NCBI GenBank assembly: GCA_022226935.1 | Contig: CP092081.1 | Location: 3,471,547-3,535,546 of the forward strand | Origin: Nitrospira sp. | GTDB lineage: Bacteria; Nitrospirota; Nitrospiria; Nitrospirales; Nitrospiraceae | Reading direction: 5' to 3' | Length of the DNA stretch: 64,000 nucleotides | Part shown: positions 22,902 to 27,647 of the stretch, piece by piece | How positions within the stretch are numbered: position 1 is the first letter of the stretch | Layout: each line of letters opens with the position of its first letter | Made by a program: the position numbers and the translations under genes | Notes under the pieces: model-generated | Databases searched by the model: none | What the model was told of the DNA's origin: nothing | What the model saw: the letters and a program-made list of their open reading frames with translations, nothing else

Positions 22902-23624
22902 ATGCGCCGGACGGACTTGTGGAGCGGGATTGCGGTGATGTGCTGGTTGGTTTTCATCATGGAGGCCGGTCCCTCATCGGCACAGGTCATCAAAGCCGGT
23001 CCAGCCTCTTGCCCTGCCGTGGCGTTGACCTATGATTTGTGCCCCGTTCGCTCCGCCTCCGGGTTCGATCGCGAGTTGGTCGACTACCTCATTGAACATA
23101 AGGTGCCGACGACCTTCTTCATGTCCGGCCGATGGATGATCAAGCACGAGGCCGAGGTGAAACAGCTGCTCGCCGTCCCTTTTTTCGAGATCGGCACACA
23201 CGGCGACATACATGCGCATCTTCCCATGCACGACGTCGAGGAGCAGCAACAGGAAATCATGGGACCGGTGCGGCTTCTCAAGACGAAGTACGGGCGGCCA
23301 GCAACACTGTTTCGTCCACCCTATGGCGAATATAATGACGTGACGGTTGATGCCGTGAAGGCGCTGGGGCTGCGTTTCATTTTGTGGAATATTGAATCGG
23401 GCGACCCCGATCCGTCCCTGAGCGCCGAAGCGATCCTAACCCGTGTGCAGAAACGGCTCAAGCCGGGCAGTGTCATCGTCCTGCATGCCAATGGAAAAGG
23501 CAAACATACCCGGGAAGTGACCCAGGCTCTGGCCGGACACCTTCTGCCCGACAAGGGTCTCATCCCCATGACCGTATCGGATCTTCTGCGATGCAACCAA
23601 TCGACAGTCGCGCCGGCACCATAA
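22902..23624 (+). CDS. Exported polysaccharide deacetylase (NodB/CE4 family)
   Basis: Signal peptide, VALTYD, EIGTHGDIH, LFRPPYG, GSVIVLH. Confidence 0.88.
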   Translation: MRRTDLWSGIAVMCWLVFIMEAGPSSAQVIKAGPASCPAVALTYDLCPVRSASGFDRELVDYLIEHKVPTTFFMSGRWMIKHEAEVKQLLAVPFFEIGTHGDIHAHLPMHDVEEQQQEIMGPVRLLKTKYGRPATLFRPPYGEYNDVTVDAVKALGLRFILWNIESGDPDPSLSAEAILTRVQKRLKPGSVIVLHANGKGKHTREVTQALAGHLLPDKGLIPMTVSDLLRCNQSTVAPAP

Positions 23625-24079
23625 TTCGCGACATGCATGAACGGGATCGCGATGCCGTGATCGCCATCCTGACCGGCTCCGATCCCTGGAAGCGTCTCGG
23701 ATTTAGCGCCTCCGACTGGCTACGCATCTTTGCGCCGCTACCGGCGGGGCGCGACACCTTCATTCTGGACGTAGAAGGGACCGTGGTGGGGATTGCGATC
23801 GTGCGTCGGAAGTTTCTCTTCGGCGATTATCTCGAGTTGCTCGGGATTGCCCCTTCAGCAACAGGCCGTGGGCTAGGCAGTAGTCTGCTGTCCCACGTCG
23901 AATCGCTCACGTTTGCGCGAGCCCCGAACTTGTTTGCTTGCGTCTCGGACTTCAATGAGGCCGCCCGCGCCTTCTATCGCAAGCAGGGCTACAAGGAAAT
24001 CGGACCGATGCCCAATTTTCTGATACCCGGATATGCCGAAATTCTCCTGCGCAAAACAGCCGGCCCGGCGAGGAGATGA
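23591..24079 (+). CDS. GNAT family N-acetyltransferase
   Basis: LGIAPSATGRGLGSSLL (motif A) and NEAARAFYRKQGY (motif B). Confidence 0.88.
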   Translation: MQPIDSRAGTIIRDMHERDRDAVIAILTGSDPWKRLGFSASDWLRIFAPLPAGRDTFILDVEGTVVGIAIVRRKFLFGDYLELLGIAPSATGRGLGSSLLSHVESLTFARAPNLFACVSDFNEAARAFYRKQGYKEIGPMPNFLIPGYAEILLRKTAGPARR

Positions 24080-24145
24080 CGTGACCTCCCAAGGTTCGTT
24101 AGACAGGCGAATCATGCCTTTCAGCAGCCGGTGAACGGGGGAGCG

Positions 24146-24550
24146 ATGAGTATGAAAGTCACCAGACTTCTCCACACGCGCATGCGCGTCAGCGACATGG
24201 ATCAGACTATCCGCTTTTACCAGACCGTGTTAGGCCTGGAAGTGATGGAACGCAAAACATCTCCGCGCGGATCACAGTTGGCGTTCTTAAAAGTCCCCAA
24301 CAGTGAGGAACTCATCGAACTGTGCAGCTTTCCCGCGAGCGGACCGGTGACCGTGCAGGAGGATCTGGTCCATCTCGCCTTCGAGGTCGAAAACCTCGAC
24401 GAGACCATCCGGAGTCTGGAGTCCAACGGCATCCGGATTACCGACGGGCCCACACGCACGTCATCCGGCAGCCGTTTTCTCTTTATCGATGCGCCGGACG
24501 GCTATGAAGTGGAGCTCATCGAACGCCCGCCCGGCACGGCACTCGTGTAA
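24146..24550 (+). CDS. VOC family protein (lactoylglutathione lyase-like)
   Basis: LLHTRMRVSDMDQTIRFY, IELC, VHLAFEVENLD, FIDAPDGYEVELIE. Confidence 0.88.
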   Translation: MSMKVTRLLHTRMRVSDMDQTIRFYQTVLGLEVMERKTSPRGSQLAFLKVPNSEELIELCSFPASGPVTVQEDLVHLAFEVENLDETIRSLESNGIRITDGPTRTSSGSRFLFIDAPDGYEVELIERPPGTALV

Positions 24551-24553
24551 GTC

Positions 24554-24718
24554 GCGTCGTTCGTCCTCCGTGAAACGTCACTCGTCTTTCAACAGCGAAC
24601 GAGGTGCCCCCCCTCACCGGCCCTTCCGCGCCCCACTGCCTGCGCCAACCCATTGACGAATTCAAATCCGCCCAAGTATTGTTCGTTCGCTTCACGTTTC
24701 ACGAGCGACCAACGACGA
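24554..24718. repeat. Two heptamer arrays in inverted orientation bracketing the VOC-dapF gap
   Basis: TCGTTCG TCCTCCG TGAAACG TCACTCG (24557-24584) versus TCGTTCG CTTCACG TTTCACG AGCGACC AACGACG (24683-24717). CGTGAAACGT and ACGTTTCACG are exact reverse complements. Confidence 0.6.
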
Positions 24719-24733
24719 ACAAGGAGAGTGCAG

Positions 24734-25603
24734 ATGAAGAACGGGTTTTTTCGCGGGCACGGACTCGGCAATGACTATGTAGTGATGGACCCCAAGGAGC
24801 TGAGCTTCAGCCTGACCCCCGGAAAAATTCGCGGCATTTGCGACCGTCATTGGGGACTCGGGAGCGACGGGATCCTCGCGCTGGTCCCTTCAAAGAAAGC
24901 CGATTTCGGTCTGCGCATTTACAATCCCGATGGCAGTGAGGCCGAGAAATCCGGCAACGGACTCCGCATCTTCGCCCGCTACCTGCATGCCACCGGCAAA
25001 ACAAAAAAACGCGCGTTCACGGTCGAGACCAAGGGTGGGCTGGTTTCGATCACGCTCCATGTCGATCGCCATGGAGATGCGGCGTCTGCCACGGTGGAAA
25101 TGGGCAGAGCCACCTTTCAACCGTCGGCGCTCCCCTGCACCTTGCCCGTCGAGGAATTGATCCAGGCTCCCATCCAGGCCGCAGGCCGGTCATTGCAATT
25201 TACGGGTGTCAGCGTCGGTAATCCCCACTGCGTGGTGTTCAAAGAAGCCGGCCACACCTGGACGCGTGAAGATCTCCTCACACTCGGACCGGCCCTGGAA
25301 AATCATCCGCTGTTTCCCAAGCGCACCAACGTTCAACTCGCCGTGCCCACCGGGCCAAAAGAAATCTTCATCCTCATTTGGGAACGCGGCGCCGGGGAAA
25401 CCCAGGCTTCAGGCTCCTCCTCCTGCGCGGCAGCCAGCGCCGCCGTGAAGTTGGGGCTCGTGAAGGGGCCGGTCAAGGTCAACATGCCGGGAGGGACGCT
25501 CAACATCGAGGTCGCCAAGGATTTCAGTCTCACGATGAAAGGCCCTGTGGCGGAAGTGGCCAGGGGCAGCCTGAGTCCGTCGTTTGTGCGAGGACTTCGC
25601 TGA
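24734..25603 (+). CDS. dapF: Diaminopimelate epimerase family protein with Ser/Ser in place of the catalytic Cys/Cys
   Basis: GHGLGNDY, RHWGLGSDG, YNPDGSEAEKSGNGLR, VSVGNPHCV, FPKRTNVQ, WERGAGETQASGSSSCAA. Start set at ATG 24734 behind AAGGAG. Confidence 0.85.
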   Translation: MKNGFFRGHGLGNDYVVMDPKELSFSLTPGKIRGICDRHWGLGSDGILALVPSKKADFGLRIYNPDGSEAEKSGNGLRIFARYLHATGKTKKRAFTVETKGGLVSITLHVDRHGDAASATVEMGRATFQPSALPCTLPVEELIQAPIQAAGRSLQFTGVSVGNPHCVVFKEAGHTWTREDLLTLGPALENHPLFPKRTNVQLAVPTGPKEIFILIWERGAGETQASGSSSCAAASAAVKLGLVKGPVKVNMPGGTLNIEVAKDFSLTMKGPVAEVARGSLSPSFVRGLR

Positions 25604-25727: not shown

Positions 25728-25838
25728 GTGATGGTTTGTGACCCTGCCTTTCACACCCGCCCGTCCGGCATGTTAATGCTCCCGCGTTCTGGAGCGATCC
25801 GGCGAGTTCCTGGTATCCTGGCAGAAGACGGTTGATGC

Positions 25839-27647
25839 ATGACAACGGATCTCCTTCAATCCAAGCTCGACCATCTCTCCGTACAACCGGGCTGTTACAT
25901 CTTCCGGAATGCGAAGAGAGAGATTCTCTATGTCGGCAAAGCTGCCGTGCTGGCAGACCGGGTGCGCTCCTATTTCCAGAAGGGGAACGACCAGACCCCC
26001 AAGACCAGCCTGCTGGTCAGCGAAGTCGCCGACCTCGAAACCATCGTCACCCGTTCCGAGCTGGAAGCGCTGATCCTCGAAAGCAATCTGATCAAGCGGC
26101 ATCGGCCGCGCTTTAATATCGTCCTGCGCGACGACAAACAATATCCCTATCTCCGGTTGCCGATCAAAGAACCGTTCCCCCGCCTGTCCATTGTCCGGCG
26201 CGTCCAAAAAGACGGAGCGCTCTATTACGGTCCCTATACGCCGGCCGGAGCTCTCCGCGAGACGTTGAAAGTCATTCGGAAAGCGTTTCCGCTGGCCACG
26301 TGTGAGATCGACATCGACGGCCGGGCTGAGCGGGCCTGTATCGAGTTTGAAATCAAACGATGTATGGCGCCTTGCACCGGCAATCAGTCCCGTGAGGACT
26401 ATCATGTGATCGTCAAACAAGTTCGTCAATTTCTTGAAGGCCGGGACCGCGAACTCCTCGACAGCCTGCGCCAGGATATGGAATCGGCGGCGGAACGGGA
26501 GGAGTTCGAGGAAGCCGCCCGTCTGCGGGATCGCCTCTTTAGCGTCGAACGTACGCTCGAGAAACAGCGGATTACCCAAGTCACAACATCAGACCAGGAC
26601 GTGATCGGGATCGCACGGCAGGGCACGGCCGCAGACCTGCAACTCCTGTTCGTGCGCGGTGGTCTCCTGATCGGCCGAAAAGATTTCTTCTGGCCGCAGT
26701 CCGCCGACTCCCCTGACGAGGAACTCGTCCGGTCCGCCATCGAGCAGTTTTATAACAAGGACGGGCAGCCGCCGAAGGAACTGCTGGTCCCGACCGACCT
26801 CGTCGACGCCTCGCTGATCGAGCAATGGCTGAGTGAGAAACGCGGCGAGACGGTGCGCCTCCTCACCCCCGAACGAGGCACGAAACATCAACTGGTGCTG
26901 CTCGCAGAAGAAAATGCTGCCGCTGCCATTGCCGACCATCTGCGGAACGAAGCCATCGATCGGCAGGCCACGGCCGAACTCAAACGCCTGCTTCGGCTCG
27001 ATGCCGTGCCTCGTCGTATCGAAGGGTTTGATATCTCCAACATCATGGGCAATCAATCGGTCGCTTCCCTGGTCGTCTGGGAAGACGGGCAGGCAAAAAA
27101 ATCCGACTATCGCAAGTTCCGTATTCAGACGGTGGAAGGCGCCAACGACTTTGCCAGCATGCAGGAAGCGGTGATGCGGCGATATGGTGCCGCGGAAGAT
27201 CTTGCTCGCCCGGATCTGATTCTGATCGACGGCGGCTTAGGCCAATTGAGTGCCGCGCTCGAAGGATTGAAACAGGTCGGCCAGGAGCAGATTCCGATCA
27301 TGGGCTTAGCAAAAGCGCGGGGGGAAAAAGAGGAACGGATCTTTCTGCCCGGCCGCAAAAACCCCATCCTGCTGCGCCCGACTTCACCCGCCACGCATCT
27401 CGTTCAACGGATTCGTGACGAAGCCCACCGGTTTGCCATCACGTATCACCGGAACTTGCGGGGCAAAGCCTTGCTCGCCTCCGAGCTCGACCAGATTGCC
27501 GGCATCGGTAAGGTCCGGCGCAACCGCCTCTTGAAACAGTTTGGGAGCCTTCAGCACGTGGCCGCCGCGACCGACGAGCAACTCAAATCGGCCGGTCTCG
27601 ATGCCGCCACCGTCGCCGCATTACGTAAAGCCCTCACCCCTGCCTGA
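25839..27647 (+). CDS. uvrC: Excinuclease ABC subunit C
   Basis: GIY-YIG (GCYIFRN..ILYVGKA), UVR (EEFEEAARLRD), RIEGFDISNI, DLILIDGGLGQL, IRDEAHRFAI and C-terminal HhH. Confidence 0.98.
   Translation: MTTDLLQSKLDHLSVQPGCYIFRNAKREILYVGKAAVLADRVRSYFQKGNDQTPKTSLLVSEVADLETIVTRSELEALILESNLIKRHRPRFNIVLRDDKQYPYLRLPIKEPFPRLSIVRRVQKDGALYYGPYTPAGALRETLKVIRKAFPLATCEIDIDGRAERACIEFEIKRCMAPCTGNQSREDYHVIVKQVRQFLEGRDRELLDSLRQDMESAAEREEFEEAARLRDRLFSVERTLEKQRITQVTTSDQDVIGIARQGTAADLQLLFVRGGLLIGRKDFFWPQSADSPDEELVRSAIEQFYNKDGQPPKELLVPTDLVDASLIEQWLSEKRGETVRLLTPERGTKHQLVLLAEENAAAAIADHLRNEAIDRQATAELKRLLRLDAVPRRIEGFDISNIMGNQSVASLVVWEDGQAKKSDYRKFRIQTVEGANDFASMQEAVMRRYGAAEDLARPDLILIDGGLGQLSAALEGLKQVGQEQIPIMGLAKARGEKEERIFLPGRKNPILLRPTSPATHLVQRIRDEAHRFAITYHRNLRGKALLASELDQIAGIGKVRRNRLLKQFGSLQHVAAATDEQLKSAGLDAATVAALRKALTPA

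Follow-up and report, generated by a model that had tools for sequence, protein, structure and literature searches.

A DapF homologue with serine at both catalytic positions is the only recognisable diaminopimelate epimerase candidate of a Nitrospira genome

The dapF locus of Nitrospira sp.

The DNA analysed here (the window) is a stretch of 64,000 nucleotides from Nitrospira sp. (assembly GCA_022226935.1, contig CP092081.1, positions 3,471,547 to 3,535,546 of the forward strand). It contains a dapF gene whose product carries serine in place of both cysteines of the canonical active site. The gene and the features recognised upstream of and within it are as follows (window coordinates).

24653..24682, + strand: sigma-70-like promoter match, tentative (TTGACG, 18-nt spacer, TATTGT)
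24721..24726, + strand: AAGGAG ribosome-binding site, 7 nt 5' of the ATG, read directly from the sequence
24734..25603, + strand: dapF, predicted diaminopimelate epimerase of the Ser/Ser type (289 aa plus stop, no internal stops)
24947..24949, + strand: Lys72 (AAA), adjoining Ser73; invariant in alignment A2, candidate tuning residue
24950..24952, + strand: Ser73 (TCC) in AEKSGNG, at the first catalytic cysteine position (Cys73 of H. influenzae/E. coli DapF)
24968..24970, + strand: Ile79 (ATC), co-varying column
25334..25336, + strand: Gln201 (CAA), co-varying column
25409..25411, + strand: Ser226 (TCA) in TQASGSS, at the second catalytic cysteine position (Cys217 of H. influenzae/E. coli DapF)
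25418..25420, + strand: Ser229 (TCC, in SGSS), co-varying column

Because the AAGGAG motif is appropriately placed before the ATG and all close homologues of Nitrospira DapF are 289 aa long, translation likely starts at 24734 and not at the TTG codon at 24653. The promoter-like site, a consensus match only, falls in the 183-nt gap between the preceding glyoxalase gene and dapF (one site found, compared with 0.3 expected from shuffled sequences).

The neighbouring genes encode an M50/CBS peptidase, a polysaccharide deacetylase, a GNAT protein, a glyoxalase-fold protein and UvrC, and give no clue to function. The polysaccharide deacetylase ORF (22902-23624) overlaps the GNAT ORF (23591-24079) on the same strand by 34 nt, provided that the predicted starts are right. 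The glyoxalase-fold gene that follows (24131-24550) has no evident functional link to dapF. Downstream, the minus strand has an ORF of 268 aa (25773-26579) that is antisense to the 5' region of uvrC (25839-27647); in this GC-rich sequence it is almost surely a shadow ORF.

The positions of the two serines were established by phmmer alignment with P. aeruginosa DapF (8qzy) and E. coli DapF (4ik0 and 6d13), which match the Nitrospira protein end to end with E values of 1e-45 to 1e-51. Ser73 and Ser226 align with the catalytic cysteines, in the motifs eqCGNG and etqaCG(t/s)G respectively, and both are invariant in the Ser/Ser alignments A1 and A2. The thiol-thiolate pair that characterises DapF is therefore absent from the Nitrospira protein, its place being taken by Ser73/Ser226. 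A first-pass annotation, made from the letters alone, had proposed that serines replace both catalytic cysteines, within AEKSGNG and TQASGSS; the translation and the phmmer alignment bear this out, with every coordinate correct.

Family assignment, predicted fold and substrate site

The protein scored 228.2 bits against the NCBIfam DapF equivalog TIGR00652 (cut-off 114.65) and contains two DAP_epimerase domains (Pfam PF01678, 181.9 bits). The model for the Chlamydia-type bifunctional DapF/glutamate racemase (NF038284) gave 49.7 bits, below its cut-off of 350. An AlphaFold2 model of Nitrospira DapF, built from 61 aligned Ser/Ser sequences, reached a mean pLDDT of 95.8 and a pTM of 0.91. When this model was compared with the PDB using Foldseek, the top 19 matches were all DapF and the top 26 were DapF or its close relative DcsC. 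The best superposition was with the closed, inhibitor-bound DapF of Anabaena (9mro; TM 0.89/0.92, rmsd 2.0 Å). The naming of the gene as dapF in the first-pass annotation is thus upheld by the equivalog score, the domain pair and the fold alike.

Other members of the superfamily were considered. The PhzF, proline racemase and hydroxyproline dehydratase relatives share 12-16% identity with the Nitrospira protein and gave Foldseek E values of 1e-17 or weaker, compared with 1e-35 for DapF. Identity as PhzF, as a proline racemase, hydroxyproline epimerase or 3-hydroxyproline dehydratase, or as YddE was rejected in view of a fold match weaker than that to DapF and no match to the corresponding Pfam or NCBIfam models.

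In the AlphaFold2 model, Ser73 stands immediately before helix 74-86 and Ser226 before helix 227-239; this modelled placement at helix N-termini is the geometry of the canonical DapF catalytic residues. The residues that bind DAP in Anabaena DapF (Asn13, Asn66, Asn164, Asn197, Glu215 and Arg216; PMC12039745) correspond to N13, N64, N163, N199, E217 and R218 in Nitrospira DapF, and this set is invariant across the Ser/Ser alignments. Nitrospira DapF has Gly46 at the position of Gln44 of H. influenzae DapF, and a glycine at this position has been linked to lanthionine tolerance (PMC12039745).

Comparison with known DapF enzymes

The canonical Cys/Cys enzymes of known structure (EC 5.1.1.7; 1gqz/2gke from H. 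influenzae, 4ijz from E. coli, 8qzy from P. aeruginosa, 9mro from Anabaena and 3ejx from A. thaliana) are 34-38% identical to Nitrospira DapF over the full length. They have in common with it the two-domain pseudo-symmetric fold (TM up to 0.89), the DAP-binding residues and the slot in the pathway. They differ from it in both catalytic residues, cysteine in these enzymes and serine in Nitrospira, and in the further changes M72K, C79I, E201Q, G229S and L251M.

The engineered H. influenzae DapF structures C73S (2q9h) and C217S (2q9j) were among both the fold and the sequence matches. These proteins also have serine at one catalytic position of a DapF scaffold, but they are single laboratory changes in a thiol-adapted enzyme, without the co-evolved second shell of the natural Ser/Ser proteins, and they are reportedly poor or inactive epimerases. 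No natural Ser/Ser DapF chain was found among the PDB sequence, motif-segment or fold matches. The Anabaena entries 9mro, 9mrp and 9mrv were considered as a solved Ser/Ser enzyme and rejected, since they represent the Cys75/Cys224 DapF (PMC12039745).

The first-pass annotation had mentioned a recent report of paired-serine epimerases, and it was right to do so. According to PMC13728532, Lamer et al. 2025 (J Mol Biol 437:169375, PMID 40774471) described active two-serine DapF enzymes of the same fold. One of them, from Anabaena sp. YBS01, is reported to be inactivated by serine-to-cysteine replacement. With bench work on Ser/Ser DapF enzymes published in 2025, this kind of enzyme has already been described. 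In the Anabaena sp. YBS01 protein, too, both catalytic positions of a DapF fold are serine; as reported there, its host encodes a Cys/Cys and a Ser/Ser DapF, and the pair may help against oxidative stress, whereas Nitrospira has no dapF other than the Ser/Ser gene. Neither the listed matches of our motif scan (see below) nor the cluster-member names of 10 representatives included a cyanobacterial Ser/Ser sequence.

Conservation of the catalytic serines

The motifs EKSGNG and ETQASGSS were found in all 121 database homologues sharing 84-91% identity with the Nitrospira protein. The same holds for all 30 loci of relatives, which come from 24 genomes of the genus and, at about 69% identity, from 6 of a sister family. 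Pairwise dN/dS values between Nitrospira dapF and its counterparts in 21 congeners ranged from 0.03 to 0.09. Across 108 Ser/Ser loci, the serine of site 1 is encoded by all six codons, of both the TCN and the AGY boxes, and that of site 2 by all four TCN codons. Since serine has been kept through synonymous changes and through TCN/AGY switches, it is the amino acid itself that is conserved. The dN/dS values and the codon switching substantiate the initial proposal that the paired change reflects selection and not decay.

Cysteine in orthologues had been named beforehand as the observation that would count against this proposal. It was found only in a different DapF lineage, in other families: two other families of the same order carry canonical Cys/Cys DapF proteins which, in alignment, are 30-38% identical to Nitrospira DapF (locus L051, where the wrong ORF had been picked, was left out of this count). 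Given so low an identity, the Nitrospira gene represents a distinct old lineage and not a recent local mutation.

In a 79%-complete Nitrospira MAG (G022:C6:22271-23139, locus L031), the dapF orthologue is broken up between three frames, which is probably an assembly error and not a pseudogene.

The sole DapF of the genome and its pathway

The complete single-contig Nitrospira genome (4.23 Mb, 99.4% complete) contains exactly one PF01678 gene. The search for a second dapF, of the Cys type, that had been proposed as a check therefore yielded none, nor did a second DapF homologue turn up in the other Nitrospira genomes with a match, 23 in number.

The remainder of the DAP pathway was then located in the same genome. 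DapL (LL-DAP aminotransferase) is present, with a TIGR03540 score of 623 and a cut-off of 593; the score for TIGR03542, the model of plant-type DapL, fell short of its cut-off, and TIGR03540 is the correct model. The genome also has a lysA-dapA-dapB cluster, and its MurE bears the DNPR motif, which is a mark of DAP-adding MurE ligases. Since the product of DapL is LL-DAP while LysA and MurE consume meso-DAP, an epimerase is needed. A bypass of DapF through meso-DAP dehydrogenase (Ddh) was rejected, as the genome gave no TIGR01921 match.

A PLP-dependent enzyme is another conceivable source of the activity: the Alr2-like DapF2 of Staphylococcus supplies DAP epimerase activity (GapMind 2026, PMC13759103). 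It resembles the Nitrospira case as a non-canonical supply of DAP epimerase, but unlike Nitrospira DapF it is PLP-dependent and has an unrelated fold. The carriers of the Alr fold (PF01168) in the Nitrospira genome are LysA, one Alr and one YggS-like protein only, and a DapF2-type epimerase was rejected because just the single Alr and the YggS-like protein remain besides LysA. Nitrospira dapF is the only recognisable epimerase candidate in the genome.

Distribution of Ser/Ser DapF and co-varying residues

When 1.84 billion cluster representatives were searched exhaustively with phmmer, 19,555 matches were obtained. Among the best 150 of these (representatives at 50% identity), 99 were Ser/Ser and 29 were Cys/Cys. 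In a quick maximum-likelihood tree of 126 full-length rows, a single branch parts all Ser/Ser from all Cys/Cys sequences (SH-aLRT 78); the rows were drawn with a bias to the query, and branch support is moderate. Within this 126-row sample, the Ser/Ser group is compatible with a single origin.

Eight loci (L076, L077, L079-L082, L085 and L091) from genomes labelled Latescibacterota, Gemmatimonadota, Planctomycetota and Myxococcota encode DapF proteins 71-77% identical to that of Nitrospira; one of these genomes is a closed 4.17-Mb chromosome (OZ241889.1). In a tree that includes them, their rows nest within the Nitrospirales subclade (100% SH-aLRT), which points either to mislabelling or mis-binning or to horizontal transfer.

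Several alignment columns change together with the catalytic pair. Column 72 is lysine in 80% of the Ser/Ser representatives and methionine in 83% of the Cys/Cys ones; column 79 is isoleucine in 96% and cysteine in 86%, respectively; and column 201 is glutamine in 93% and glutamate in 93%. At column 229, serine occurs in 95% of the Ser/Ser representatives, compared with glycine (of CGTG) in 100% of the Cys/Cys ones, and column 251 switches between methionine (Ser/Ser) and leucine (Cys/Cys). Rare catalytic pairs were also seen among the representatives, namely Thr/Cys (P0238) and Ser/Thr (P0260), as well as Ser/Ser in a Cys-type context (P0137, EMSGNG ... ASGTG; P0174, ASGTG, named Nitrospirota). 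These four could be transitional forms or separate origins.

A scan for the motif DGSEA[EG]xSGN, with one genome per species, identified proteins in at least 598 species from a dozen or more phyla. By the submitters' labels, the matches listed include Nitrospirota, Methylomirabilota/Rokubacteria, Thermodesulfobacteriota, Dadabacteria, Bacillota, Chloroflexota and several candidate phyla, together with Bacteroidota (Prolixibacteraceae, including the cultured Tangfeifania diversioriginum DSM 27063) and Aquificota (Sulfurihydrogenibium). Of the five other genomes checked, four have no dapF besides the Ser/Ser gene, that of T. diversioriginum being one of the four.

Clostridium sp. LS (G042; loci L126 and L138) has both a Ser/Ser and a Cys/Cys DapF, the latter with the motifs NMCGNA and LACGTG and 30% identity to Nitrospira DapF. 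This two-copy arrangement is the one reported for Anabaena sp. YBS01 (PMC13728532).

Some Ser/Ser DapF domains are part of larger predicted proteins. Fusions to LysA were found in P0149, P0214 and P0299 (360-429 bits; lysA equivalog cut-off 297.9), a fusion to MurE in P0158 (433.6 against the DAP-ligase equivalog cut-off of 373) and fusions to alanine racemase (Alr) in P0223 and P0261. As all of these are gene predictions from metagenomes, some could be artefacts. Even so, independent fusions to LysA and to MurE, both consumers of meso-DAP, fit the role of a DAP epimerase. In P0157, a Ser/Ser DapF is fused to a gamma-glutamyl cyclotransferase-like domain (GGACT).

Discussion

The genome carries one PF01678 gene together with DapL, lysA-dapA-dapB and a DNPR-type MurE, and lacks a recognisable Ddh; the product of that gene is thus most likely the housekeeping epimerase. 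We consider it probable that Nitrospira dapF encodes an LL-DAP/meso-DAP epimerase (EC 5.1.1.7) of a natural Ser/Ser type, the activity being deduced from family, substrate site and pathway. In the proposed pathway, DapA and DapB would be followed by DapL, and the Ser/Ser DapF would convert LL-DAP to meso-DAP for LysA (lysine) and MurE (peptidoglycan).

Three other explanations of the paired serines were weighed. That they are an artefact, arising from a sequencing or assembly error or in a decaying pseudogene, deserves next to no weight: the ORF is intact and the structure prediction is of high confidence, and the recurrence of both motifs, unchanged, in over 150 independent sequences, together with purifying selection, rules this explanation out. 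Nothing was found in its favour, the only broken copies being those in two low-quality MAGs, G022 (split) and G011 (at a contig end). It is also very unlikely that the protein is a catalytically dead DapF kept for a non-enzymatic role, for instance as a partner of an RNA pyrophosphohydrolase. E. coli DapF does moonlight as an activator of RppH (6d13, 6vck; PMC13728532), and a simple cysteine-to-serine replacement would be expected to cripple catalysis. Yet conservation in the family peaks at the residues of the active site and of substrate binding, which a scaffold would not require, dN/dS is as low as in core enzymes, and the pathway would miss an essential step.

A change of chemistry or substrate is a somewhat more serious alternative, though still an improbable one. 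The Ser/Ser protein would in that case have drifted to the role of an amino-acid racemase, or of a dehydratase or isomerase as in the proline-racemase relatives with a cysteine-to-threonine change, and meso-DAP would be made by an unrecognised enzyme. Relatives with the DapF fold and altered catalytic pairs do perform other reactions (the 3-hydroxyproline dehydratases 6r76 and 4k7g, and PhzF), albeit as weaker fold matches, and the lanthionine-linked glycine at position 46 (PMC12039745) also leans this way. Against this, all DAP-binding residues are invariant, including the Asn/Glu/Arg set of the distal site; the genome has no other route to meso-DAP, be it Ddh, a second DapF or a spare Alr; and the LysA and MurE fusions tie the Ser/Ser domain to the enzymes that consume meso-DAP. 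In addition, the published Ser/Ser DapFs are reported as epimerases (PMC13728532). The conserved DAP site, the gap that would be left in the pathway and the fusions thus disfavour both the changed reaction and the non-catalytic role, and leave a Ser/Ser DAP epimerase as the preferred explanation.

In such an enzyme, the reaction would most likely follow the mechanism of Cys/Cys DapF, a two-base 1,1-proton transfer. From either side of the substrate C-alpha, Ser73 and Ser226 would serve as an alkoxide/hydroxyl pair, both sitting at a helix N-terminus within a closed, water-excluding pocket. As an acid/base, the hydroxyl of serine falls far short of a thiol. In view of this, and of the weakness of the engineered cysteine-to-serine mutants, activity must depend on the context of the serines, which we infer to lie in the residues around them. 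The co-evolved second shell (Lys72, Ile79, Gln201, Ser229 and Met251) probably adapts the pocket to oxygen bases, and Lys72, lying beside Ser73, may serve as an activating partner of the Ser-Lys type.

For a nitrite oxidiser, protection from oxidative or nitrosative stress is an attractive rationale for the serine form. Thermodesulfobacteriota and Bacteroidales are mostly anaerobic, and the presence of a sole Ser/Ser DapF in such lineages is left unexplained by this rationale. Another view, that epimerisation of DAP by serines is a primary solution and not a stress back-up, would accord with a Ser/Ser enzyme that is the only DapF in Nitrospira and in most of the holders checked, with an old group spanning many phyla (at least 598 species) and with a co-evolved Lys72/Ile79/Gln201/Ser229 shell; we put it forward tentatively, and regard it as possible but rather doubtful.

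DapF is the textbook example of a cofactor-free epimerase with two thiols, and a long-standing antibiotic target. A natural Ser/Ser DapF means that the thiol pair is not obligatory, a point published in 2025 (see PMC13728532). What the present analysis adds is genomic evidence that the serine form can bear the whole housekeeping load, in Nitrospira and in many other phyla, and a short list of co-varying residues as candidate enablers of serine chemistry. For annotation, it follows that Ser/Ser genes are correctly called dapF despite the missing "essential" cysteines. In Nitrospira, an environmentally important genus of nitrifiers, the serine DapF is not a second copy beside a cysteine enzyme. 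If this picture is true, and if it has not already been shown by Lamer et al. 2025, the residue signature and the sole-copy status would together make a modest new point on thiol-free abstraction of the C-alpha proton.
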